Source of the DNA: a phage
Sequence record: PZ168832.1
DNA length: 64,000 nt
Direction: 5' to 3' (one strand)
Shown here: piece by piece, positions 1,550 through 45,838 of the stretch
Numbering within the stretch: position 1 is the stretch's first letter
Layout: the number at the start of each line of letters is the position of its first letter
Made by a program: the position numbers and the translations under genes
The notes under the pieces: generated by a model
Told to the model about the DNA's origin: nothing
Database searches by the model: none
The model's input: the letters and a program-made list of their open reading frames with translations, nothing else

Positions 1550-2389
1550 TTATTCCGCTTGATCACCGTCTTCGGCATTGTCGTTGGATTCAACATCGAC
1601 AAACTCGATGTGTCCCATCTCTTCCAGCTTGCTCAGGTAGGAGCGAACGGAAGCGCCAAACAGTTGATCTTTAACTTTCTCGCCCAGCTCATCGATAGAC
1701 TGTGCCACGCCAACTTCGCCTTCTTTGATCGCCGCCAGAACGCGTCCACGGGTGGAATGCTCTTGCGGCTGGCTCAGGCCATTGCCAGTGTAGATGAAGT
1801 GAGTGGCTTTTGCACGACGCTGACCGTTTGCCTTTTTAGCAGCCTTGCGCTCTGCGATAGCTTTGCGACGTTCTTCAGCTTCTTTCTTACGCTGTTCTTT
1901 CTGCTGTTCCGCAGCTTCTTTCGCCGCAATCTTAGCAGCTTCACGCTCTGCCTTGCGTTTCGCCTTGGCTTCTTCTTTGGCCTTCTCTTTTTCGGCCTTC
2001 GCTGCAGCACGGGCTTGATCACGCTCTGCTTTCTTAGCAGCAGCCTGCTCTGCTTTCAGGCGCTTGGCTTCTTCTTTAGCCTTTGCCTTTTCGATTTCTT
2101 TTGCTGCTTTAGCGGCTTCACGCTCTGCTTTCTTAGCAGCAGCCTTTTCTGCACGCTCTTTAGCTTTCTTAGCTGCTTCTTCAGCACGCTTCTGAGCCTT
2201 CTCATCAGCAGCCTGTTTGCGCTTCAGCGCGGCTTCTTCACGCTTGGCTTGTTTTTCCTGCTCACGCTTCTGGCGTTTTTCTTCGGCTTCTTTCTTTTTA
2301 GCCAGGCGTTTTTCTTCAGCCACGCGACGACGTTCTGCTGCGGCTGCTTGTTTTTCTTCTTTAGATAATACTTTGATTGCTTCGGCCAT
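1550..2389 (-). CDS. Lys/Ala/Glu-rich low-complexity protein with a C-terminal globular domain (histone-H1-like / nucleoid-associated candidate)
   Basis: About 200 aa of KAE repeats (AEKAAAKKAEREAAKAAKE...), then a roughly 80-aa non-repetitive C-terminal region. ORF-track start at 2395 is GTG; ATG at 2389 has an AAGGA RBS 8 nt upstream. Confidence 0.6.
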   Translation of the reverse strand: MAEAIKVLSKEEKQAAAAERRRVAEEKRLAKKKEAEEKRQKREQEKQAKREEAALKRKQAADEKAQKRAEEAAKKAKERAEKAAAKKAEREAAKAAKEIEKAKAKEEAKRLKAEQAAAKKAERDQARAAAKAEKEKAKEEAKAKRKAEREAAKIAAKEAAEQQKEQRKKEAEERRKAIAERKAAKKANGQRRAKATHFIYTGNGLSQPQEHSTRGRVLAAIKEGEVGVAQSIDELGEKVKDQLFGASVRSYLSKLEEMGHIEFVDVESNDNAEDGDQAE

Positions 2390-6611: not shown

Positions 6612-8282
6612 ATGTCAATTGAACATGACAATCTTCCAGAGGATACAGGTGATGAATTTGGTGCAATCTTTGACGAAATTCAAGACGCTGGTGTTTCAGA
6701 AGAAATGCAAGCAGCAGAGCAGCAAGGCACCAGAGCTAAAATAAGCCTTCAGCACAAGGCTGTTGAGAAAGATGCAGAGCGCATGGAATGCTACGGTGAA
6801 GAAGACTTGGTTGAAAGGGCACGTTTGCTCGCCTCACTTCAGGTAATCAAGTTCCCTCACTATAAACCGACGAAAGATGATTTTGTTCTTCAGGCGGACC
6901 GGACGAGTGACATGAACCGTTATGCGGTTTTCGACGCGTTGTTTGATAAGGGAAGCGGCGTTGTTCCATTCCCTCACAAAGATACTTTTCGTGGGCGCTT
7001 AGTCGACCATCGCGGCGAAACATTCACCGACCGGACGTTGGAAGTCACAGAGATAGTTGCCGCTGTCGACGCAGCAGGCCTGTCCAACCCAAACTCACGG
7101 CAGGTCGCTCAATCCTATAAGGAATGGGCCATGCGTTATCAGCGCGACGACCTGATGGACTTCTTCTACAAGAAGCTGCCTGAATGGGACGGTACTGCGC
7201 GCATTGAGAAATACCTTATCGAGCTATTCCGACCGTTCGATACAGAGTTAAACCGACAAATCGGTGTGTATTTTTGGCTATCGCTCTATAACCGCCTGAC
7301 CAACCCTGGCTGTCAAGCGCCAATATCCATTGCGCTCATCGGCGGCCAGAACGCAGGGAAGAGTTATTTTAGTAAGCTGCTTTGCGAAGCTATTATGAAC
7401 GACCGCCACGCAACACCGATTCCGTTGAACTTGGCCGCGCAAAACTTCAACCCGTTCTTGCGAGCTATTACGGGTCGCTCAATTATCGCGAACGTTGGCG
7501 AGATGACAGGCTTTAAAAAGGCCGACATCGAAAACATGAAAGCATTCCTGACTAAGACGGAAGATGACCTGGACTTCAAATTTGAAGACACGCAGGTTAA
7601 ACCACGCCAGTGGATTGCGATCATGGACGGCAACGAATACGCAGGCATGCAGCGTGACGACACGGGCAACCGTCGTGTTTACCCTATCTTTGTTGGCCAA
7701 CTTGCTGACAAGGACGGGCAACCGAACTGGTCTAAAGACTTCCAAGCTGACCTTTCCACTTTGAAAGAAGATGTTTGGCAGCTTATGGCTGAGTGCGCTG
7801 CGTGGATGGAGAAGCACGGCGAAGCAGGTTACAACGCCTTTGTTGGTGAAACGTCTCGTATGCTTACTGAGTTCAGCAAGAATGAAATGGAACGCGCTCG
7901 CGGCGTTATCCGTGATGAGATGGTCGACAACGACCTTGTTGAAGTCGTCATTACTGCGCCTTATGACCGACATCACAGCGGACGCTGGCACATCACCAGT
8001 GGTGCAATCGCTATGGGATTCAGAGCTAAGTGCGGCAAGTCGCCTTTCTCACGTACCCTTGCGCCGCACATGTCGAAACTTGGATTTGAGCCTGCAACCT
8101 ATCGCAACCAGCGTGGTTACTTTACGCCGCTGATTAAGAATGAAGCAGGGGAATACATTTCTGACTTGATGACTATCTTGGCGTATCTTATCCGCGACGA
8201 GTCTGACCCTGAAGATATTGAATTCTTGAAGAAGGTTATTGAACGCAAACGTTCTTTAGGAAGAGATAAGGATGAATTCTGA
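6612..8282 (+). CDS. Primase-associated P-loop helicase (VirE / D5-like, SF3-type)
   Basis: Walker A GGQNAGKSYFSKLL; 556 aa; sits downstream of the Prim-Pol gene, giving a split primase-helicase arrangement. Confidence 0.6.
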   Translation: MSIEHDNLPEDTGDEFGAIFDEIQDAGVSEEMQAAEQQGTRAKISLQHKAVEKDAERMECYGEEDLVERARLLASLQVIKFPHYKPTKDDFVLQADRTSDMNRYAVFDALFDKGSGVVPFPHKDTFRGRLVDHRGETFTDRTLEVTEIVAAVDAAGLSNPNSRQVAQSYKEWAMRYQRDDLMDFFYKKLPEWDGTARIEKYLIELFRPFDTELNRQIGVYFWLSLYNRLTNPGCQAPISIALIGGQNAGKSYFSKLLCEAIMNDRHATPIPLNLAAQNFNPFLRAITGRSIIANVGEMTGFKKADIENMKAFLTKTEDDLDFKFEDTQVKPRQWIAIMDGNEYAGMQRDDTGNRRVYPIFVGQLADKDGQPNWSKDFQADLSTLKEDVWQLMAECAAWMEKHGEAGYNAFVGETSRMLTEFSKNEMERARGVIRDEMVDNDLVEVVITAPYDRHHSGRWHITSGAIAMGFRAKCGKSPFSRTLAPHMSKLGFEPATYRNQRGYFTPLIKNEAGEYISDLMTILAYLIRDESDPEDIEFLKKVIERKRSLGRDKDEF

Positions 8283-15798: not shown

Positions 15799-16499
15799 AT
15801 ACGTATTTATGACAGTTTAATCCACTAAATAATACGGATAGAACAGTGAGGAAAATACAGCGGTGTATTTTAGTGTAAATATTGAATCAAAAATAAATAA
15901 TTATGGTGCTATTATATACGCAGATTGTTTGTAATTTATAGGATATTTTATCGTGGAGTATTGGCTAACGGTGCGTTAGCCGTGGGTCTTGGTGCTTGTG
16001 GTGTTGATGCTCAGAATTTTAATAATGTTTTAGTTTTAGTAATCGTAGTCAATGATGATACGTATAAGAAAATGAGAGTCACCCCTTCACAGGATATTGT
16101 ACCGTGGCCCTGTGGTGCGCCGCGCCTGGGATTGCTGGTATACACTGGTGCTATTTTGCCGCGAAGGCAGTCATTCATACGTATCATGACGTATCATTGG
16201 GCTATTGATTTATAAGGAAAAATACGCTGATACGGATGATACGGGTGCAAACATAATATATATAGAATTCCAGAAAATTAATTAACTCCATTTTGAATTA
16301 ATTTAAATTAATTTTTTTCTACATCCTCATACTTATACTAAACTTATATTTATACGTATCATCCGTAAGATATAAGTAAAAACAAAGACTTGCGGCAATA
16401 CGGATGATACGTCATGATACGCTTCAACCAGCCATCTGCGGCTAAGTCATTGATTTGCATAACAAGCGGCGAAAGGGATGGATTTCTTTTATACGTATC
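15799..16499. repeat. Iteron cluster A: 9-10-bp CGTATCATC / GATGATACG units in both orientations around an AT-rich core
   Basis: Units at about 16057-16065, 16176-16200, 16229-16245, 16353-16369, 16398-16422, 16491-16499; AT-rich core 16261-16316; 8-bp palindrome GGCTAACG..CGTTAGCC at 15962-15980. Confidence 0.6.
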
Positions 16500-31672: not shown

Positions 31673-31950
31673 CGCGTATAATGACGTATCATCCGTATCA
31701 AGTAAGTAGTTGTTTTCAAAAGAATCTTACGGATGATACGGATGATACGCGTTGCCGCGATACTTTATAGGAATTCAAATAAATTAATTTAAAATTATAT
31801 ATCTAATTTAATTTTATTTTTTTATAAACTCTTATATATGAAAAGTATCCGTATCATCCGTATCATCCGTAGCACACCAGTGATAGCGCGGCTTATACAC
31901 CGATACGGATAAAAATACGCCTCATTTTATCCGTATCATCCGTATCACAC
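31673..31950. repeat. Iteron cluster B: same 9-bp CGTATCATC / GATGATACG units and a homologous AT-rich core
   Basis: Units at 31681-31700, 31727-31750, 31845-31873, 31901-31920, 31925-31950; AT-rich core 31767-31824 shares TATAG(G)AATTC and AATTAATTTAAA with cluster A. Confidence 0.6.
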
Positions 31951-37764: not shown

Positions 37765-39303
37765 GTGATCAGTCAATCTCGTTATATTAAAATTGTATCA
37801 GGGGTCGGAGCAGGCGCGGCTGTTGCAGTTCGCAAACTGTCGCTTCGCATCATGACTTCCAATACAGTTCTGCCGCCAGGCATTGTAGCAGAATTTTCAA
37901 CTGCTGATGCCGTTGGATCATATTTCGGTTTTTCTTCCGAAGAATACAAGCGTGCAGCACTGTATTTTGGATTCATCAGCAAGCAAATCAACTCGCCTGA
38001 TTCAATCAGTTTTTCTCGCGTTGTATCCACGGCGATTCCTGCAATGGTTATCGGCGATACTGAGCCTAAAACACTTGCTACTTTTCAGGCATTCACTGGC
38101 GCTATCTTAAGCATCACTTATGACGGCACAGACTACCTGACCGACGCAATCAACCTTTCAGCGGCAACAAGCCTTGCCAACGTAGCGGAACTTTTGGAAA
38201 CGGCAATCAACACCAAGTTTGCAGCAGAAGGTGGGACATCGGTGCCTGCACTTGCTGATGCAGAAGTGTATTGGAACGCCAACACCCAGCAGTTCACTTT
38301 GGAAGCCGCGCCGTCGACCGCTGGCGCTGGCAACCTTTCGATTAACGTTACAGGTCAACCGACAGACCCATCTCAGGCGCTTGGTTGGACGACTACTGGC
38401 ACCGTTACGGTCGATGGTCAGGGCGTAGCAAGTCCGGTAGAAGCCATCGCGGCATCTGTAGAGATTTCCAACAACTTTGGCTCATTCCTTTTCGCTGGAG
38501 CAGACCGAACGCTGGAAGAAATCACCGCTGTTGCAGCTTGGACTCACTCGCAGAACAATATGTACATGTATCTGTTCTCGACTGCATTCGCCAACATCGG
38601 CTCATACTATACCGCGCTGAAAGGTTACTCAGGCGTTGGCATGATGATCCGTGCAACCAACCTCGCGAATGATTACATCGACCAGGCACCTGCTGAAATT
38701 CTTGCGGCAACAAACTATAATACTGTAAACGCAACTCAAAACTACATGTATTATCAGTTTGACACGCGAAATGTTACTGTATCGACTGATTCACGCGCAG
38801 ATACTGCTGATCAAAACCGTGCAAACTATATCGGCGCTACTCAGCAAGCTGGTCAAACGCTCGCATTCTTCCAGCGTGGCGTTCTGATGGGCGGGTCTAC
38901 CGCAGCAGTTGACATGAACACTTATGCCAACGAGATGTGGCTTAAATCTGCTATCACTTCTCAATTGTTCAGCATGTTCTTGAATCTTGGTCGCGTGCCT
39001 GCAAACGAAGAAGGCAAAGCGACTGTACAAGCCATGATTCAAGTTGCTGTTGACAATGCGAAGGTTAACGGCACCATCTCTGTCGGTAAGGCGCTGACGG
39101 AAATCCAGAAACAGTACATCACGCAAACTTCCGGTGACAACACTGCTTGGCGGCAGGTTGAGACTATCGGCTATTGGTTGACTGTCGATTTTGACACTGA
39201 AACCACTTCCGATAACCGAACCGAATACTATGCAACATACACGCTAATCTACTCTAAAGATGATGCTGTGCGTCGCGTTGAAGGTCGTGACGTTCTTATT
39301 TAA
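37765..39303 (+). CDS. Tail sheath protein (tentative)
   Basis: 512 aa, directly upstream of the tube gene; AAGAGGA RBS then GTG start. Confidence 0.55.
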   Translation: MISQSRYIKIVSGVGAGAAVAVRKLSLRIMTSNTVLPPGIVAEFSTADAVGSYFGFSSEEYKRAALYFGFISKQINSPDSISFSRVVSTAIPAMVIGDTEPKTLATFQAFTGAILSITYDGTDYLTDAINLSAATSLANVAELLETAINTKFAAEGGTSVPALADAEVYWNANTQQFTLEAAPSTAGAGNLSINVTGQPTDPSQALGWTTTGTVTVDGQGVASPVEAIAASVEISNNFGSFLFAGADRTLEEITAVAAWTHSQNNMYMYLFSTAFANIGSYYTALKGYSGVGMMIRATNLANDYIDQAPAEILAATNYNTVNATQNYMYYQFDTRNVTVSTDSRADTADQNRANYIGATQQAGQTLAFFQRGVLMGGSTAAVDMNTYANEMWLKSAITSQLFSMFLNLGRVPANEEGKATVQAMIQVAVDNAKVNGTISVGKALTEIQKQYITQTSGDNTAWRQVETIGYWLTVDFDTETTSDNRTEYYATYTLIYSKDDAVRRVEGRDVLI

Positions 39304-39309
39304 ATAATT

Positions 39310-39327
39310 GCCGCCGTAACTGGCGGC
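39310..39327 (+). other. Stem-loop between the sheath and tube genes
   Basis: GCCGCC-GTAACT-GGCGGC, no T-tract. Confidence 0.3.
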
Positions 39328-39350
39328 CATCTCTCTGAGAGGAATCTGTA

Positions 39351-39818
39351 ATGATTAACGTTTCCGGTTTTGGCGCTTCGATTCGTTTGGTAGCATCAAA
39401 CACTTTTCCGAATGGTGTGACTCTTTCTGATTTTGCAGATGATGCTGATCCGATTGACGCGCCGGACCTGCAAATCTCTGAGGCCGCAATGGGCCTTAAC
39501 GGTGACCTAGTAGTATGGAACCGTGCAAACCCACTTGAAGTAGGTGTGAACATCATCCCTACTTCTGAAAGTGATGTCAACTTGGACGTTCTTGCAGCTG
39601 CAAACCGCGTAGGCAAGCGTAAGAACTCCGCAAAAGACGTGATCACACTTGTGCTGACTTATCCTTCTGGAATGGTTATCACGCTAAACAAAGGCACCTT
39701 GACAACTGGTTCAGTAATTCCTGGCATCCAGTCTCAAGGTCGTGTGAAAACACGTCAATATCGCTTCAAGTTTGAGAACGTAGTCAAAACTGGCGTGAGC
39801 AACCAAGAGATTTTATAA
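39351..39818 (+). CDS. Tail tube protein
   Basis: 155 aa directly after the sheath gene; paralogous to 40769..41266 (MINVSGFGASIRLVA vs MVNISGFGTSIRIVA). Confidence 0.55.
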   Translation: MINVSGFGASIRLVASNTFPNGVTLSDFADDADPIDAPDLQISEAAMGLNGDLVVWNRANPLEVGVNIIPTSESDVNLDVLAAANRVGKRKNSAKDVITLVLTYPSGMVITLNKGTLTTGSVIPGIQSQGRVKTRQYRFKFENVVKTGVSNQEIL

Positions 39819-40147
39819 TGTATCAAATACCACTTGACAGCGTACCTAACCAGAATATCAGCTTTAACGTTGACGGTGCATATTGGCAGTTGCACATTTT
39901 TGCCGCTATCGAGCATATGTGTGCCGACGTATATCGCAATGGTGAACTTTTGATTCAAGGGGTGCGCTGTTTTGGTGGTATCCCAATGGTGCCTTATAAG
40001 TATCTCATGATTGGGTACGGTAATTTCATTTTCGACAGCGTACCTGATTATGAAAGTTTTAACTCTGGCGGCTGTAATCTATATTACATGTCAGAATCTG
40101 AGTTGGCTGAATTCCAGGCCACTGCTGAAGCGGAGTTTGCAATTTGA
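39818..40147 (+). CDS. Hypothetical tail protein
   Basis: 109-aa ORF. Confidence 0.45.
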   Translation: MYQIPLDSVPNQNISFNVDGAYWQLHIFAAIEHMCADVYRNGELLIQGVRCFGGIPMVPYKYLMIGYGNFIFDSVPDYESFNSGGCNLYYMSESELAEFQATAEAEFAI

Positions 40148-40500
40148 CAACTCTAACCATTGAAGTGAACGAAAATAATGACCTTTTTCTACCTGATGGA
40201 AGAAACTTAAATATTCTTTCAGGAGAAAAAGCAATGGTGCAAGTAATCAAGGCCGCGCATCAGATGCGACTTGGTGAAGACTTGTACGATATAGAAAACG
40301 GGGTCGATTATTTGGGGACCGTTTTCAAGTCGCCCGTTGACGAAGACGGTGCGCGAAAGTCGATTGCAGATGCTATTCTGAAGAAAGCAGACGTTGCCGG
40401 AATCGACTCATTGACTGTCACCATCCAAAACGGTATCCTTGGATTCACTGCAGAAGTGGTGACTATTTATGGCGAACGTATAAAGGTGAGTAATCAATAA
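40144..40500 (+). CDS. Hypothetical tail protein
   Basis: TTG start with GGAG RBS, overlapping upstream stop. Confidence 0.4.
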   Translation: MTTLTIEVNENNDLFLPDGRNLNILSGEKAMVQVIKAAHQMRLGEDLYDIENGVDYLGTVFKSPVDEDGARKSIADAILKKADVAGIDSLTVTIQNGILGFTAEVVTIYGERIKVSNQ

Positions 40501-40766
40501 TGGCACAAGTAATTCATTTTGCAAATGGCGTCATGAAATTTGGCGAAAAATTTGAAGACGCATCAGAGCTGTTTAATAAGAAGGTTGAGCCTGTTACAGA
40601 AATCAAAGAGCAGGTCGAAGAAAAGTCCGTTGAACAAAAACTCGATTTTGATTCCATGAGCGTTTCAGAATTGAAGTCTTATGCCAAAGAAAATGGCATC
40701 GACATCAAGGGTCTTTCTTATAAGGATGAAATTCTTGCTGCAGTTAAATCTGCATCTGCGGAGTAA
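40500..40766 (+). CDS. Small protein with SAP / Rho-N-like helix-extension-helix motif
   Basis: MSVSELKSYAKENGIDIKGLSYKDEILAAV. Confidence 0.45.
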   Translation: MAQVIHFANGVMKFGEKFEDASELFNKKVEPVTEIKEQVEEKSVEQKLDFDSMSVSELKSYAKENGIDIKGLSYKDEILAAVKSASAE

Positions 40767-40768
40767 AC

Positions 40769-41266
40769 ATGGTCAATATTAGTGGATTTGGCACAAGCAT
40801 TAGAATTGTCGCTCTTCAATCTTTTCCTGTTGGGCTGAATATCAGTTCTTTGTCTGATGACCAGGATTCGCTAATTATTGAGGAAGTTGAATCAGTAGGT
40901 TATCAACTTACTTACGACGGCGGCATTTGCATATACGACAAAGCCGCCGTCGTTCGCGTATCCATTGCGGTCATTCCAAACACTGAAGATGACATAAATC
41001 TTAAGCTTTTATTATCTGCCCGTAAAGGTGGATTCAAGTGGTTGCCAATTCAGGATGTGACATCAATGCTTATTACATATCCTGACGGTGGAAGGGTGGC
41101 ATTCTCTAACGGAACAATAATCAGCGGTCCGCTTGGTGACTCCATAGAGCAATCAGGCCGTCGCAAGACAAACCGATACACATTTGTGTTTGCCAGCTAC
41201 GGTGGCGCACAGAGCACGTCTCAAATTGCCAAGGGCGTGGTGCAAAGCATATTGGGGTCCATTTAA
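40769..41266 (+). CDS. Tail tube protein paralogue
   Basis: Aligns along its length with 39351..39818 (shared KGTL/NGTI ... QSGR.KT.RY.F). Confidence 0.55.
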   Translation: MVNISGFGTSIRIVALQSFPVGLNISSLSDDQDSLIIEEVESVGYQLTYDGGICIYDKAAVVRVSIAVIPNTEDDINLKLLLSARKGGFKWLPIQDVTSMLITYPDGGRVAFSNGTIISGPLGDSIEQSGRRKTNRYTFVFASYGGAQSTSQIAKGVVQSILGSI

Positions 41267-41799
41267 TGGCTATCGATTTACTGTCATATAGTCTATCAAA
41301 CAGAAGCTTCACGATAAAGAGCTTCAACCTTGGAGAAGTATCCACGCTTGGATGGGCCATAGTCAACGTCAAAATAAGACTCCAAGCGAAGATATTCAAA
41401 AACCAAAGGGAAGACGGCAGCTATATTGTCGATGGCAGAGTAAAGATGCCGCGAATACTCACTGTCACCGTGATAGCTCAGACGAAAAGCGCATCAGACG
41501 CAATAGCTAAGATGTTGCAAAACAGGTCGACTATATACACAATTAATTCCCGTGGTCTAATATTCGAACGTATGGTGCTGCAAAATAACAACTTCAGCCA
41601 GGACGCTGACAATATAACGTCTCAGCCCATACAATTGGTCTTCCATGAGATATTAACACAGCAGGATGTGTCTATTCAAACAGCGCAGGCAGGCGACTCA
41701 ACAGTAATAGAGCGCGGCATTGCATACATAAAAGAAACTTCTGCCAGCGTCACTGGCGTCGCTACAAAGGTGATGAATGGTATCAAGGGGATGTTCTGA
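41266..41799 (+). CDS. Hypothetical tail protein
   Basis: 177-aa ORF. Confidence 0.5.
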   Translation: MAIDLLSYSLSNRSFTIKSFNLGEVSTLGWAIVNVKIRLQAKIFKNQREDGSYIVDGRVKMPRILTVTVIAQTKSASDAIAKMLQNRSTIYTINSRGLIFERMVLQNNNFSQDADNITSQPIQLVFHEILTQQDVSIQTAQAGDSTVIERGIAYIKETSASVTGVATKVMNGIKGMF

Positions 41800-42359
41800 T
41801 GGACTTCGTTTCGATTCTGCTTTCTGGTCAATCTTTGACCATAACGAATGAGTCAACAGGTCTTCCTGTCTGGACAAGGCTTTCACCTGTTTCTGCAGAA
41901 ATAACATCCCCAGCAGAAACAACTCAATTCCCTCTTGCTGGTACAGCCATGCAGGTTGTCGAAGTATCAAGCACGTCATCAGTAAGCAATTTACAGGCGG
42001 CAAAGGTTGTAATGCCAGCCCATATGGCGTTAAACGTAATTTGCAATGACCAGTCTACAATTGAAAATATCATAAATTCATTTGATGATGACGAAGTCAC
42101 ATTTTCAATAACTTCTCGAAGCATCATTGCCAGTAAAATGTCGATGTCCGACGTTGAAATAACCCAGTCAGAAGAAAACTTGAATGGAGTCTCAATAGTA
42201 ATAACTTTCGAGCAAACGTCATTTAGCATTCAAGGAAGCTTCGACCCTAAACAATCTGCAGACGAATCATCAAATGGTGTTGCTATTAAAGAACCAGTCA
42301 GTTTGACTACAACTGTGAGTTCGTTATATAATAAAATAAAATCAACAGTAGGAATATAA
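41799..42359 (+). CDS. Hypothetical tail protein
   Basis: 186-aa ORF. Confidence 0.5.
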   Translation: MDFVSILLSGQSLTITNESTGLPVWTRLSPVSAEITSPAETTQFPLAGTAMQVVEVSSTSSVSNLQAAKVVMPAHMALNVICNDQSTIENIINSFDDDEVTFSITSRSIIASKMSMSDVEITQSEENLNGVSIVITFEQTSFSIQGSFDPKQSADESSNGVAIKEPVSLTTTVSSLYNKIKSTVGI

Positions 42360-42360
42360 A

Positions 42361-42777
42361 ATGAAGATCACCAACAAACAAACTGGTCGTACAGTAGAAA
42401 TTAAAATCAGCAAAATGACTGCGATGGAAGGCTGGAATATTCAGCGTCGCTTTGTCGAATTTGCAATGTCGAAGGACCCTGCGTTTCGTTCAGAGTATAC
42501 GATGGAAGTGTTGAGCTTCGCAAAAGTCGAGCTTGATGTTGGCCAAGAAATCCCATTAAGTACTGGTGCACTAATTGACAACCATCTTGGTGACTGGGAA
42601 AACCTTAAAGAAGTCTTCGAAGCAGTCCTCATGGAGAACGGTATAAACCCAGATACTCACGCCGAGCGTGAAGGCTACTGGGAACAAGCTGGCGGCGAAA
42701 TGGCTGCAGCATTCATCGGCGAATCGATGCGATTAATCGCGCCATTCCTCAGCGGCGAGACTCCAAACAAGGGGTAA
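42361..42777 (+). CDS. Tail assembly chaperone candidate
   Basis: 138-aa ORF immediately upstream of the tape-measure gene. Confidence 0.45.
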   Translation: MKITNKQTGRTVEIKISKMTAMEGWNIQRRFVEFAMSKDPAFRSEYTMEVLSFAKVELDVGQEIPLSTGALIDNHLGDWENLKEVFEAVLMENGINPDTHAEREGYWEQAGGEMAAAFIGESMRLIAPFLSGETPNKG

Positions 42778-42780
42778 ACT

Positions 42781-44961
42781 GTGTCTGACTCATTAGAAAA
42801 ATTTGTGCTTCAATATACGGTGGACTTGAAAGAGTCCATCAATCGTCTTGAGCAATTGCAAGATAAGGTTGATCAGACAAACAAAAAGGCAAAATCCGCT
42901 GGCAAAGATTTCTCTGGAGCATTCAAAGATGTTTTTGGCGAGCTAAAGCCGCTTACTGGTGAGCTAGGGTCAATTGACGGAATACTTGCGCGGCTGACAT
43001 ATCGTTTTGCCGCGCTCGTCCCTGTTGTCGCAGGATTGGCAGTCGTCGTCAAATCCATCGTTGATGTTCGAAAAGAATACGAAGCGCAAAGAAAGCTTGG
43101 TTTTGAAGCCGGACTCTCTCCAATGGGTGTCGAACAACTACAACGACAGTTGAATGAAAGTTCAGGTGGCATCCTTGGCGCACAGGGGTCGCGAGACTTA
43201 ATCAGCAAAGCTTCTAATCTGGCATTCAATGCATACACCAACCCCGATGTGATGAACAAGGACAACTTGTTGTTGAACAAGATGGGGACAAGTCCTTTCA
43301 ACAGTAACGGCGGCATCAAAGACACGAATCAGCTGCTTGATGAAATTGGAACAAAGCTGAGAAGTGTGAATGAGCAAACCGCTCGTGCTATTGGTGCTCT
43401 GGCAGGTTTTACCGCCGATGAAGTCCGCGCCCTTCGCGAGCGCAACCAGTCTGTGAAAGAAAGCACACGCATAAGCGATGAGGAAACGGCAAAGCTGCAG
43501 CGCCAACAAGCTGCTCTTGAGACTATACGAAATAGTATGGGGCAAATTCAAGAAGATTGGCGGCGTATTGAGCTGGTTATCGGTGAAAACGTTATGCCTG
43601 CATTCTCGACGCTTGTCAGCAAAACCGCCGATACAGTCGAAGGATTCCAGATGATGTTCCAAAGAATGTCTGACGGATGGAGCGAATTTGTCGACAATTT
43701 CATCGCTGACTTGAAACACCCGTTTGATAAACAGGCGGCTGTTAACGAGCGTCACGAGCGTGCCGTTGATAGATGGATCACGCAGATGGCCGAAGGCGAT
43801 GTGAAACGCCAGAGGAACCAGGAGCAAAACGCAGCTGAACAACGTTCTGCGCAAGCACTTTTCACTCGCGATATAAACCTGTTTTCAAGCGCCGTTTCAA
43901 CATTTGCTGGCGTCATTGATGAGCGACAAGCATGGGCTGCATGGGCTGGTGAAATAGGACGAAGCGCAGGTCAATCTGCCATGCCTGGAACACCAGCACT
44001 AAGTACTGGCGCGACCGTAGGCAACAACTTGGGATCAGGCAATCCGACCGCTTACGACTCAATATATGAGGAAGCATCCAAGCGTTATGGAATCCCTGTT
44101 GCGATGATGAAGGCCGTAACAGAAGTCGAATCTGGATTCAACCCCAATGCCGTAAGCGGAGCAGGTGCGACCGGACTGATGCAAATCATGCCTTCCAACT
44201 TCAAGGGCCTTGGTATCACAGACGGCAACGACCCTAGACAAAACATTATGGGCGGCGCTCAACTGTTGAAAGAGTATTTAAACGCTGCCAACGGCGATTG
44301 GAATCTTGCGCTGACGATGTATCACGGCGGCTACGACCGCAGCGGCTGGGGCAAGAATACACGCGCTTATCCTGGAAAGGTCATGGCCGCTCTCGACCGA
44401 CAATCCAATGGTGAGTATGCCACGGCAGCGCCGCAAGGTGCACCAGTTACTCCAGTACTTAGCGGTAGCGGAGCGGAAGCACCAAAGGGCAGCTATGCAC
44501 CAGTACAAGGCCAATCGCGCCAAACGGTGCAATACAGGCAATTGCAAGAAGCCATTGCAGGATACCTGAACGTACCAGTTGAGCAGTTGATGCAGGGACA
44601 AGTAAACAAAGGTGATATTGACTTTGCTCAAACTTACCTTAAGCTTGGAACGCAAAGGGATTATATTAAAAATATGCAGCTGGCTTCAACTCCAGGTGTA
44701 AGACCGAACATTCAAGCCGAAGCGATGAAAAACGCTCGTCTTGCTGCATTCCAACTTGAAGCATTCCAGAAATATGGCGGCGACCTTTCCGCGAATAGTC
44801 GACCTGGTGGGCGTGATATTACTATGGGTCAGAAAAACGTTGTCATCAACGTAAACGGCGCTCAAGACCCACGCAGCACGGCGTTCGAAACGAAACGGGT
44901 GCTTGAACAAGATGATATCAACGACATAAACAACCTTACTGCTACACCTTTGAAGTGGTGA
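42781..44961 (+). CDS. Tape measure protein with lytic transglycosylase (SLT) domain
   Basis: Coiled-coil-rich N-terminal half; SLT motifs EVESGFNPNAVS ... GLMQIMPSNF ... LTMYHGGY; GTG start with AAGGGG RBS. Confidence 0.7.
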   Translation: MSDSLEKFVLQYTVDLKESINRLEQLQDKVDQTNKKAKSAGKDFSGAFKDVFGELKPLTGELGSIDGILARLTYRFAALVPVVAGLAVVVKSIVDVRKEYEAQRKLGFEAGLSPMGVEQLQRQLNESSGGILGAQGSRDLISKASNLAFNAYTNPDVMNKDNLLLNKMGTSPFNSNGGIKDTNQLLDEIGTKLRSVNEQTARAIGALAGFTADEVRALRERNQSVKESTRISDEETAKLQRQQAALETIRNSMGQIQEDWRRIELVIGENVMPAFSTLVSKTADTVEGFQMMFQRMSDGWSEFVDNFIADLKHPFDKQAAVNERHERAVDRWITQMAEGDVKRQRNQEQNAAEQRSAQALFTRDINLFSSAVSTFAGVIDERQAWAAWAGEIGRSAGQSAMPGTPALSTGATVGNNLGSGNPTAYDSIYEEASKRYGIPVAMMKAVTEVESGFNPNAVSGAGATGLMQIMPSNFKGLGITDGNDPRQNIMGGAQLLKEYLNAANGDWNLALTMYHGGYDRSGWGKNTRAYPGKVMAALDRQSNGEYATAAPQGAPVTPVLSGSGAEAPKGSYAPVQGQSRQTVQYRQLQEAIAGYLNVPVEQLMQGQVNKGDIDFAQTYLKLGTQRDYIKNMQLASTPGVRPNIQAEAMKNARLAAFQLEAFQKYGGDLSANSRPGGRDITMGQKNVVINVNGAQDPRSTAFETKRVLEQDDINDINNLTATPLKW

Positions 44962-44965
44962 TAAT

Positions 44966-45838
44966 TTGAAAAAGAGAATCCTTAAAGTCACCTTATCTAT
45001 GCCGGATGGCACAAGCCAAGTGCTTGATGAAGGATTGATGCTTAGATGCCGAATCAAAAAGGCAGCACTTTCCGTGCAAAATAAGGCCACAATCGAAGTC
45101 GCAGGATTGACAGGGTACTTGAGAGAGCACCTGCTTTCCAACTTCACCGCATTCAACAAACGTCTGCGTGATCAAGGCCAATTGGCGGCGAATTACGTCA
45201 ACGTAACAATTGAAGCTGGATATAGAGAAGGCAACGTTGTTAGCAGCAACTTAGTCTACAAGGGGCAAGTCACAACGGTCGAGATAACAGCGCCGCCGCC
45301 GAACATCGTCATACGCATCACTTGCTACACCAACCAGATAAACAGGACTAAGTTCATCACTCAAGCTGCACCGTCAAACCCAACATTCAAAGAGTTTGTG
45401 GAGTGGTCGGCAAAGCAAATGGATATTGATACTGTTATCTGCGATACTTCGATTAACAATCAGCGTCTTGTTAACCCAGGCCGCACAACATATGTTGCAG
45501 CCGCCTTGCTGCTTGAGATTCAGAACTATCAAAGGAACTCTATTGCGGCATATATCGATGATGATACGCTCATCGTCAAGGATAAAGACAAAATTCTGAA
45601 TCCAGAACAGATAACGGTGATTGAGGAATTTGTCGGAATACCGATGTGGAACGAGTGGGGCGCTGACTTCACTTGCATGTATAACGCGGATTTGAAGCTT
45701 GCCCAAGGTGTGAAATTCAAATCAGTCTTAAACCCAAGCTTGAACGACACCACATTCGTCATCATGCAACTTGAATATGATTTAGCAAGTCGTGATGACA
45801 TATTTACGGTGACGGGCGGCGTTGCACCATCGGCCTAA
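44966..45838 (+). CDS. Tail / baseplate hub-associated protein
   Basis: 290-aa ORF between the tape measure and baseplate genes; TTG start. Confidence 0.45.
   Translation: MKKRILKVTLSMPDGTSQVLDEGLMLRCRIKKAALSVQNKATIEVAGLTGYLREHLLSNFTAFNKRLRDQGQLAANYVNVTIEAGYREGNVVSSNLVYKGQVTTVEITAPPPNIVIRITCYTNQINRTKFITQAAPSNPTFKEFVEWSAKQMDIDTVICDTSINNQRLVNPGRTTYVAAALLLEIQNYQRNSIAAYIDDDTLIVKDKDKILNPEQITVIEEFVGIPMWNEWGADFTCMYNADLKLAQGVKFKSVLNPSLNDTTFVIMQLEYDLASRDDIFTVTGGVAPSA

Follow-up and report, generated by a model that had tools for sequence, protein, structure and literature searches.

The tails of the Pseudomonas Pbunavirus phages E217 (PDB 8fuv / 8env / 8eon) and Pa193 (PDB 9b42 / 9b45), whose virions were solved by cryo-EM in 2023 and 2024, respectively, contain a tube and baseplate-tube pair that is resolved at near-atomic resolution. 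The E217 tail tube protein gp32 forms stacked hexameric rings inside the sheath (34 rings, 204 copies), and E217 gp36, called 'tail tube-B' there and 'baseplate tube' in Pa193 (gp37; PMC11456595), forms a single hexameric ring, enclosed by the baseplate cap and sharing the axis of the tube, whose distal end it occupies; tube and baseplate-tube copies in E217 stand at 204:6. The naming is inconsistent, as PDB 8env gives 'Ripcord' to gp36 and in Pa193 'ripcord' denotes the products of the two genes that follow; the E217 and Pa193 papers also differ in how they describe the adaptor contacts. In both phages the baseplate-tube ring sits on top of the gp37/gp38 ring (E217 numbering), a heterohexameric six-to-three-fold adaptor of which ripcord-1 is one half, and contraction leaves the baseplate-tube ring, the ripcords and the hub attached to the tip of the tube.

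Tube and tube-initiator paralog pairs are also known from T4 (gp19 with gp48/gp54), AFP (Afp1 with Afp5) and PVC (Pvc1 with Pvc5), in which the diverged tube copy provides the initial ring (or rings) within the baseplate and makes the connection to the hub.

Here we analyzed a window of 64,000 nucleotides (PZ168832.1) that belongs to a known Escherichia phage of the genus Wifcevirus (98.9% DNA identity to Bas98 and 98.5% to WFC), a distant relative of E217 and Pa193. We put the probability at roughly 90% that its tail module is collinear with those of E217 and Pa193, with the protein of 39351-39818 as the main tube and that of 40769-41266 as the single baseplate ring that starts the tube. This two-paralog arrangement is correct, already known and ordinary, since it has been solved by cryo-EM in the related Pseudomonas phages. 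The biological gain is small, as the BASEL collection paper had already used the homology between the two genera and let a Pbunavirus cryo-EM structure guide Wifcevirus annotation.

The two tube genes and their tail module

The initial annotation had described two tail-tube proteins that are similar along their length and separated by three small genes, and it was right on both counts. Both ORFs were confirmed with ATG starts (Table 1), exactly three ORFs lie between them, packed tightly or overlapping by 1-4 nt, and the two genes are true, ancient paralogs. BLASTP aligned the proteins without gaps over 143 residues (47 identities, 33%; 61% positives; E=2e-32), and their Smith-Waterman score of 251 compares with 31 +/- 5 for 1000 shuffles (maximum 52; z=44), so that the pairwise alignment left the proposed similarity standing. 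Both also cover the whole 144-position profile of Pfam PF22764 (E217_Gp32), with 203.8 bits for the upstream protein (residues 2-144) and 180.4 bits for the downstream one (residues 3-144), against a curated gathering score of 27 bits.

Table 1. Tail genes and associated features of the region, in positions of the window
Feature	Coordinates	Strand	E217 / Pa193 counterpart	Description and evidence
Tail sheath	37765..39303	+	gp31 / gp32	Pfam DUF3383 E 8.5e-119; PDB 8fvg/9b42 E ~1e-165, full length
GC-rich hairpin GCCGCC-GTAACT-GGCGGC	39310..39327	+		In the 47-nt sheath-tube spacer; direct reading and terminator scan
Main tail tube protein (paralog 1)	39351..39818	+	gp32 / gp33 (orthologs)	155 aa, 16.5 kDa
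Baseplate adaptor 'helical bundle'	39818..40147	+	gp33 / gp34	109 aa; PDB 9b45_A E 1.1e-26, 8env_G E 2.4e-26; Pfam Pam3_gp18 E 2.5e-16
Sheath initiator, T4 gp25-like	40144..40500	+	gp34 / gp35	118 aa, TTG start; PDB 9b45_G E 6.1e-23 from residue 1, 8env_H E 1.8e-21
Variable 'slot' protein, C-terminal SAP/HeH domain	40500..40766	+		88 aa; Pfam SAP E 8e-6
Baseplate tube / tail tube-B / putative tube initiator (paralog 2)	40769..41266	+	gp36 / gp37 (orthologs)	165 aa, 17.6 kDa
Ripcord-1	41266..41799	+	gp37 / gp38	PDB 9b45_S E 1.1e-20, 8eon_A E 2.9e-20; Pfam Gp38_E217 / Dit_like
Ripcord-2	41799..42359	+	gp38 / gp39	PDB 9b45_V E 1.3e-27; Pfam Gp38_E217 E 1.8e-71
Conserved 138-aa protein	42361..42777	+		PHROG 4627 (unknown function) E 3.9e-63; its gene directly precedes that of the tape measure
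Tape measure / lytic tail protein	42781..44961	+		Pfam SLT E 2.8e-24 (transglycosylase domain); PHROG 2013 E 4.8e-139; tape-measure PHROGs
Baseplate/tail hub, trimer beneath the ripcord ring	44966..45838	+	gp41 / gp42	PDB 8eon_E/9b45 E 1.8e-85, residues 1-283 to 1-280

Searches against PDB assigned the two paralogs to different layers. The upstream protein is the reciprocal best match of the solved tail tube (Pa193 gp33, E 1.4e-48; E217 gp32, E 4.4e-42; 54% identity to both over the full length), with the baseplate tube far behind at 2.5e-25, and it begins 47 nt past the sheath stop codon. The downstream protein is the reciprocal best match of the solved baseplate tube (Pa193 gp37, E 1.1e-52; E217 gp36, E 2.2e-49; ~52% identity, full length), with the tube at 1.4e-21, and ripcord-1 begins at its stop codon. 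In a neighbor-joining tree, midpoint-rooted and without bootstrap support, tube and baseplate-tube sequences separated cleanly into two clades. Each of the five phage lineages covered (Wifcevirus, Pbunavirus, Myosmarvirus, Carpasinavirus and one Burkholderia phage) is present in both clades, and each of our proteins fell into the clade of its best match. Reciprocal best match, clade and position thus place the upstream gene in the main tail tube orthogroup, and the same evidence, together with a shared C-terminal tail, places the downstream gene in the baseplate tube / tail tube-B orthogroup. The proposal that the duplicated gene provides distinct tube and baseplate-tube layers is borne out by these assignments.

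Between sheath and hub, the gene order matches that of E217 and Pa193 and is kept in six relatives, and a solved E217/Pa193 homolog exists for every neighbor but the slot protein and the 138-aa protein. The sheath initiator belongs to PHROG 120 (baseplate wedge subunit), and its Mansfield counterpart is annotated as gp25-like. Downstream, this phage has the ripcord pair in common with E217 and Pa193, ripcord-2 being a weak paralog of ripcord-1 (21% identity, E 2e-4). The 138-aa protein gave no match in the Pfam search; its gene position, conserved in all relatives, suggests a tail assembly chaperone. The systems differ in host and genus (E. coli Wifcevirus with ~46% GC here, Pseudomonas Pbunavirus there) and in the tape measure, which is a 726 aa ORF here and longer in Pa193, where residues 840-858 of gp41 were built in the structure.

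The sheath-tube spacer contains, 3' of the hairpin and just upstream of the tube ATG, a Shine-Dalgarno-like GAGAGGAA. An antisense ORF within the tube gene (39296..39646, 116 aa) was taken as spurious, because purifying selection on the plus-strand frame is strong and synonymous changes in it are numerous. A consensus scan yielded 22 promoters (16.4 +/- 3.3 in shuffled sequence) and 12 terminators (10 +/- 2.9). These numbers are close to those of shuffled sequence and no convincing internal promoter or terminator was found between the two paralogs, so separate transcription units for them were rejected. Neither tRNAs nor Rfam families at gathering score were detected in the region or the window.

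Virion content and tail architecture

The initial annotation would have been undermined had only one of the two proteins been present in virions, and published mass spectrometry spared it this outcome. CsCl-purified particles of phage vB_Eco4M-7 contained vB_Eco4M-7_49 (16.5 kDa; 6 peptides, score 283) and vB_Eco4M-7_53 (17.6 kDa; 3 peptides, weak score of 4.5) (PMC7048862), which are 100% identical to our tube and baseplate-tube proteins, respectively, with matching masses. Through these identical counterparts both paralogs are virion structural proteins, the evidence for the baseplate tube being weak; in the second phage analyzed, ECML-117, the baseplate tube is absent from the table (PMC7048862). 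The protein scores, ~60-fold higher for the tube, are not stoichiometries; the much lower score of the baseplate tube gives indirect support to a single ring of six copies.

Orthology, fold, synteny, purifying selection and, by way of the identical vB_Eco4M-7 protein, virion presence are established for this phage. The geometry of the Wifcevirus virion is probably the same as that of E217 and Pa193, by analogy: the position and copy number of the baseplate tube are transferred from ~52-54% identical proteins, as the solved structures come from these two phages and none from a Wifcevirus. On this model, the tube protein would form hexameric rings stacked within the sheath, and the anciently diverged copy would form a single ring where the tube ends distally. 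The lower face of this ring would rest on the heterohexamer of ripcord-1 and ripcord-2, itself built from a paralog pair, which would step the six-fold symmetry down to the trimeric hub and spike. Its upper face would present a tube-like surface on which the first true tube ring could nucleate, and we infer a putative tube-initiator role for the baseplate tube. Upon contraction, ripcords, hub and baseplate tube would stay together at the tip of the tube. Of the three intervening genes, two encode the baseplate adaptor and the sheath initiator, and the third a small protein that varies.

Two other architectures deserve consideration. The paralogs could co-polymerize along the whole tail as a heteropolymeric or alternating tube, which would suit their common fold, their joint association with virions and the lack of a solved Wifcevirus structure. 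We consider this very improbable, as the helical tube of E217 and Pa193 consists of gp32/gp33 alone and gp36/gp37 contributes one cap ring, the downstream protein scores ~60-fold lower in virions, and both its C-terminal tail and its residue 34-56 hairpin region are clade-specific and conserved for a distinct role. Equally improbable is that the second copy stays out of the virion, as a redundant duplicate in decay or as an assembly factor without a structural role, a reading that draws on its weak score in vB_Eco4M-7 and its lack of an entry for ECML-117. The 3 peptides came from CsCl-purified particles, and homologs are modeled in two virion structures. Moreover, dN/dS is ~0.01 for the baseplate tube and 0.013 for the tube, at dS ~0.5-0.6, which shows strong purifying selection on both paralogs, and the baseplate-tube protein is 100% identical in amino acids across wifceviruses that are 10% apart in DNA. 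Matches at 737 places in 380 phage records indicate that nearly all of these related phages carry both copies. The arrangement of a polymerizing tube and a single baseplate ring remains the preferred one.

Age of the duplication, fold and the tail fiber label

A recent, phage-specific origin of the second copy, by a local tandem-duplication event or as an assembly artefact, has nothing in its favor except the protein similarity itself, and we regard it as already refuted: blastn between the two genes found only 8-9-mers and third codon positions are 33.6% identical (two results that also reject the pair as a recombination substrate), the paralogs are 33% identical to each other versus 52-60% for each to its own ortholog in other genera, and independent genomes show the same arrangement. 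The lack of DNA similarity and the two clean clades over five lineages instead mark the duplication as old. Single-copy relatives were sought to date it, and in Bordetella phage IFTN1 (39.8 kb) a single copy was detectable. Burkholderia phage Bm1 seemed to be another by tblastn, yet a further PF22764 gene directly precedes its tape-measure-like gene.

Structure prediction gave models of moderate confidence (pLDDT 79.9 and 78.9), in which both paralogs have an identical order of strands and helices: a predicted beta-sandwich of two sheets, flanked by one helix and bearing a long beta-hairpin, as in the tail tube / Hcp fold superfamily. Foldseek matched both to E217/Pa193 chains at TM 0.77-0.90 and, after these, to the tubes of Pam3, Sf14, Bas63, PhiTE, lambda gpV, Hcp, AFP and PVC. 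The best match of the upstream model, whose underlying alignment consists mostly of baseplate-tube-clade sequences, was 9b42_M (TM 0.82/0.85, 54% identity), and that of the downstream model was 9b45_M (TM 0.83/0.90); the predicted folds thus agree with the initial annotation and are reciprocal-best with the tube and the baseplate tube, respectively. Outside the Pbunavirus group the closest solved tube is that of cyanophage Pam3 (PDB 8hdw; TM ~0.6, identity ~15%), and the adaptor encoded here belongs to the Pam3_gp18 family. Both paralogs also match tube-fold chains in the AFP (6rao) and PVC (9qgl, 6j0n) baseplate entries (E ~1e-3 to 1e-5), with the fold alone in common (8-15% identity, TM ~0.45-0.5). 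The logic of the pair is the same as in T4, AFP and PVC, and the duplications there and here may be independent.

Public records (RefSeq, BASEL, PHROG 2420, the PF22764 description) call both paralogs tail fiber proteins. The label is wrong and already refuted by the solved structures: it derives from a molecule name, the E217 paper's own name for gp32 is tail tube protein, true fibers are encoded elsewhere (E217 gp46), and both paralogs are globular proteins of ~16-18 kDa with predicted tube/Hcp-type beta-sandwiches that match tube chains from numerous phages and from contractile injection systems, not fibrous trimeric receptor-binding or fiber-shaft architectures. In total, four tube-fold baseplate and tube proteins are mislabeled as 'tail fiber protein' in RefSeq/BASEL-style records, PHROG 2420/2580 and the PF22764 description line. 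This label misleads searches for host-range determinants in therapeutic Pbunavirus and Wifcevirus phages, and the practical value of the finding is one of annotation.

The C-terminal tail and the slot protein

At its C-terminus the baseplate tube extends into a tail of ~20 aa that is specific to its clade, has a predicted helical structure and is conserved in the E217 and Pa193 proteins as well. Its motif GAQ(S/T)..Q....Q..LG is present in 34/34 baseplate-tube sequences and 0/7 tubes, and the tail lies outside the modeled part of the 151/152-residue PDB chains. A speculative and rather doubtful idea is that this tail (GAQS..Q....Q..LG) converts a tube subunit that would otherwise polymerize into an initiator of one layer, through docking of the tape measure or of a different partner in the lumen or baseplate, the adjacent, fast-evolving slot protein being a candidate. 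Were it true, the slot protein would be an unrecognized, disordered virion component across the whole phage group.

The slot gene differs between the systems, encoding 88 aa that include a SAP domain in this phage and 143 aa without a recognizable domain in Pa193. A PDB homolog search with the slot protein returned nothing below E 0.28, its positional equivalents have only an N-terminal motif of ~15 aa in common, and those in four other genera gave no Pfam domain; its dN/dS is 0.12. Neither of the two Pbunavirus cryo-EM papers (E217, Pa193) mentions it in its main text. In the virion mass spectrometry it was detected with 10 peptides and a score of 2929 (PMC7048862), and a protein that is virion-associated by this measure and unplaced in the structures constitutes a minor lead.

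Similarity and orthology of the two tail-tube paralogs

The initial annotation had placed two similar genes in the tail region, separated by three small genes, and this layout was borne out by the six-frame ORF list, in which both genes have exactly the stated coordinates and the three intervening ORFs are tightly packed. BLASTP aligned the two proteins over 143 ungapped residues with 33% identity and 61% positives (E=2e-32), a highly significant similarity that confirms the pair, and 1000 shuffles gave Smith-Waterman scores of 31 +/- 5 against 251 for the real pair (z=44). Both match Pfam PF22764 across the entire profile, and both match PHROG 2420.

Tail genes and other features of the window
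Feature	Position	Strand	Basis or remark
Sheath	37765-39303		solved E217/Pa193 homolog, E about 1e-165
GC hairpin in spacer	39310-39327	+	GCCGCC GTAACT GGCGGC
Tail tube	39351-39818	+	155 aa
Adaptor, E217 gp33 / Pa193 gp34 'helical bundle'	39818-40147		solved E217/Pa193 homolog
Sheath initiator	40144-40500		solved E217/Pa193 homolog
88-aa protein	40500-40766	+	C-terminal SAP/HeH domain, Pfam E 8e-6
Baseplate tube	40769-41266	+	165 aa
Ripcord-1, E217 gp37 ortholog	41266-41799	+	solved E217/Pa193 homolog; Pfam Gp38_E217 / Dit_like
Ripcord-2, E217 gp38 ortholog	41799-42359	+	solved E217/Pa193 homolog; Pfam Gp38_E217 / Dit_like
Hub, E217 gp41 ortholog	44966-45838	+	solved E217/Pa193 homolog
Octamer-rich intergenic regions	16055-16421, 31685-31939		13 of 14 copies
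281-aa ORF	1550-2395	-
Repeats within 281-aa ORF	1821-2152		families D2, D6

By blastn against phage records, the stretch 37765-44961 matched Wifcevirus Escherichia phages at 90-99% identity with 100% query coverage (Bas98 HermannAdler, 98.9%; vB_EcoM_WFC, 98.5%), and more weakly about 255 Pseudomonas phages together with phages of Serratia, Xanthomonas, Burkholderia and Pantoea. Wifcevirus and Pbunavirus are distantly related according to the BASEL collection paper, in which a Pbunavirus cryo-EM structure is said to have 'greatly helped' the annotation of Wifcevirus structural genes. E217 and Pa193 are two Pseudomonas Pbunavirus phages with solved virions. Across all PDB sequences, the 155-aa protein best matched Pa193 gp33 'Tail tube' (E 1.4e-48) and E217 gp32 (E 4.4e-42), against E about 1e-25 for the baseplate-tube family, and the 165-aa protein best matched Pa193 gp37 'Baseplate tube' (E 1.1e-52) and E217 gp36 (E 2.2e-49), against E about 1e-21 to 1e-16 for the tube family; the matches are reciprocal best.

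Structure prediction agreed with this assignment. AlphaFold2 models built on a 32-sequence alignment (pLDDT 79.9 for the tube, 78.9 for the baseplate tube) have an identical order of beta-strands and one helix, with an additional C-terminal helix at residues 150-164 in the baseplate-tube model. In Foldseek searches against PDB both models showed the tube fold and each matched its own orthogroup best, the tube model 9b42_M and the baseplate-tube model 9b45_M (TM 0.83/0.90), followed by the tubes of Pam3, Sf14, Bas63, PhiTE, lambda, AFP and PVC and by Hcp. The alignment behind the tube model consisted mostly of baseplate-tube-clade sequences, yet its best match was still a tube. Membership tests for the tube fold, for PF22764 and for the tube and baseplate-tube orthogroups all came out positive for the two proteins.

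The same gene order is found in Mansfield, Bas98, Pa193, Erwinia phage TropicalSun, Xanthomonas phage Carpasina and Burkholderia phage Karil-Mokiny-1. No solved E217/Pa193 homolog was found for the 88-aa protein or for the 138-aa protein preceding the tape measure gene. Directly downstream, the ripcord genes form a second, much weaker paralog pair (21% identity, E 2e-4). The hub ORF opens at TTG 44966, a start also used in vB_Eco4M-7, with its residue 1 aligned to residue 1 of E217 gp41 (E 1.8e-85); the annotated gene begins 54 nt downstream of this in Mansfield (equivalent to 45020 of the window) and 33 nt downstream in Bas98 (equivalent to 44999), so that both calls probably lack part of the N-terminus.

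Ring architecture and gene names

In E217, the tube consists of 34 stacked gp32 hexamers. Concentric with it is a single hexameric ring of gp36 ('tail tube-B'), whose RMSD to gp32 is 3.6 A and to which three gp37/gp38 heterodimers attach (PMC10329688). These orthologs of ripcord-1 and ripcord-2 build a heterohexameric ring that converts six-fold symmetry to three-fold, as the trimeric hub gp41 and the tip gp43 require, and the tube tip keeps gp36, gp37/gp38 and gp41 after contraction (PMC10329688). The arrangement in Pa193 is as in E217, with gp37 named 'baseplate tube' (PMC11456595); the adaptor contacts are described differently in the two papers (PMC10329688, PMC11456595). The proposal that the duplicated gene encodes distinct tube and baseplate-tube layers is supported, and the arrangement is already known from these related phages. 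By orthology, the 165-aa protein should form a single hexameric baseplate ring. Analogous tube paralogs occur in T4, AFP and PVC, and from this analogy together with the ring geometry we infer that the 165-aa protein would nucleate polymerisation of the 155-aa tube protein and so serve as tube initiator.

Public records name these genes otherwise. Both paralogs and both ripcords carry the label 'tail fiber protein' in Bas98-101 and in the RefSeq entries of WFC, WFH, FEC19, ECML-117, Pa193 and others, and the descriptions of PHROG 2420/2580 and Pfam PF22764 read the same. The fold contradicts a tail fiber identity, as does the E217 paper (PMC10329688), and the label on four tube-fold genes is a systematic mis-annotation. 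The first paralog is a 'tail tube protein' in Mansfield, and the second a 'baseplate cap subunit' in the Pseudomonas record vB_PaeM_PE1. Names also clash over gp36, which is 'Ripcord' in PDB 8env; the Pa193 paper keeps 'ripcord' for the next two proteins (PMC11456595).

Divergence of tube and baseplate tube

In a neighbour-joining tree, midpoint-rooted and without bootstrap support, tubes and baseplate tubes form separate clades that each contain all five lineages (Wifcevirus, Pbunavirus, Myosmarvirus, Carpasinavirus and a Burkholderia phage), with identities of 43-60% between orthologs and 27-39% between paralogs. No DNA similarity is detectable between the two genes, whose third codon positions are 33.6% identical. 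The baseplate tube found 737 places in 380 phage records by tblastn, so both copies are present in almost every relative. Both paralogs are under strong purifying selection within Wifcevirus (at dS ~0.5-0.6, dN/dS 0.013 for the tube and ~0.01 for the baseplate tube), and the baseplate-tube protein is 100% identical in genomes with 10% DNA divergence. In Burkholderia phage Bm1 the second PF22764 copy (7132-7626, E 1.7e-45) is more divergent and was missed by tblastn with the window protein; it lies directly upstream of a tape-measure-like gene, and the two are not separated by a ripcord pair. Bordetella phage vB_BaM-IFTN1 (39.8 kb) has a single PF22764 gene and a Dit_like gene after the tape measure; the position and presence of the duplicate thus vary in more distant relatives.

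The two clades have 24 strongly conserved positions in common and a clade-conserved difference at residues 34-56, which read D.PDF..ADT..GLNGD.V.W in tubes and E..E..GYE.LYDG in baseplate tubes. This segment aligns with the 'extended beta-turn' of E217 gp32 (residues 35-56), which makes many subunit-interface hydrogen bonds (PMC10329688). A C-terminal tail, (F/Y).GAQ(S/T)..Q....Q..LG.., is conserved in 34 baseplate-tube sequences and absent from 7 tubes; it is predicted with modest confidence to be helical and is not modelled in the deposited chains, as these contain 151-152 residues of the 167-residue protein. The genes also start differently: a separate 47-nt spacer after the sheath stop codon, with a GC hairpin and the Shine-Dalgarno-like GAGAGGAA, leads into the tube gene, and the baseplate-tube ATG, preceded by GGAG, lies 2 nt past the preceding stop codon. 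This layout is consistent with high tube expression and lower baseplate-tube expression. The hairpin is a perfect 6-bp GC stem. It has no T-run after it on the plus strand and so may serve mRNA stability or processing instead of termination.

Virion proteins and other elements of the window

Both paralogs, not one only, were detected in virions of vB_Eco4M-7. In mass spectrometry of CsCl-purified vB_Eco4M-7, _49 (16.5 kDa) gave 6 peptides, 52% coverage and a score of 283, and _53 (17.6 kDa) gave 3 peptides, 25% coverage and a score of 4.5 (PMC7048862); by coordinates these are the tube and baseplate tube. Many tube copies and six baseplate-tube copies would give a gap in this direction, although an MS score is not quantitative. 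The baseplate tube is unlisted for ECML-117 (PMC7048862).

The third-highest score in that dataset (2929; 10 peptides, 65% coverage) belongs to vB_Eco4M-7_52 (PMC7048862), identical to the 88-aa protein whose gene separates those of the sheath initiator and baseplate tube. No PDB homolog was found for it, and the E217 and Pa193 main texts do not mention the equivalent gp35/gp36 (PMC10329688, PMC11456595). Its dN/dS of 0.12 makes it evolve ~5-10 times faster than the genes around it. The proteins encoded at this position in Pa193, Carpasina, TropicalSun and Karil-Mokiny-1 (71-150 aa) have only an N-terminal motif of ~15 residues in common with it, M..QV..FANGVM; the rest of their sequence is acidic, Pro-rich and of low complexity. 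The 88-aa protein may be a disordered, unplaced component of the virion.

Elsewhere, the octamer CGTATCAT occurs in 14 copies against 2.0 +/- 1.5 expected, a number reached in 0/100 shuffles. All but one lie in two intergenic regions near GC-skew and strand-switch points, many paired in tandem at a spacing of 9-10 bp, in both orientations, around very AT-rich cores; these regions resemble binding sites of the iteron type, at divergent promoters or an origin. The 281-aa ORF contains four ~99-nt repeat copies (69-94% identity), which points to internal 33-residue repeats in its predicted product.
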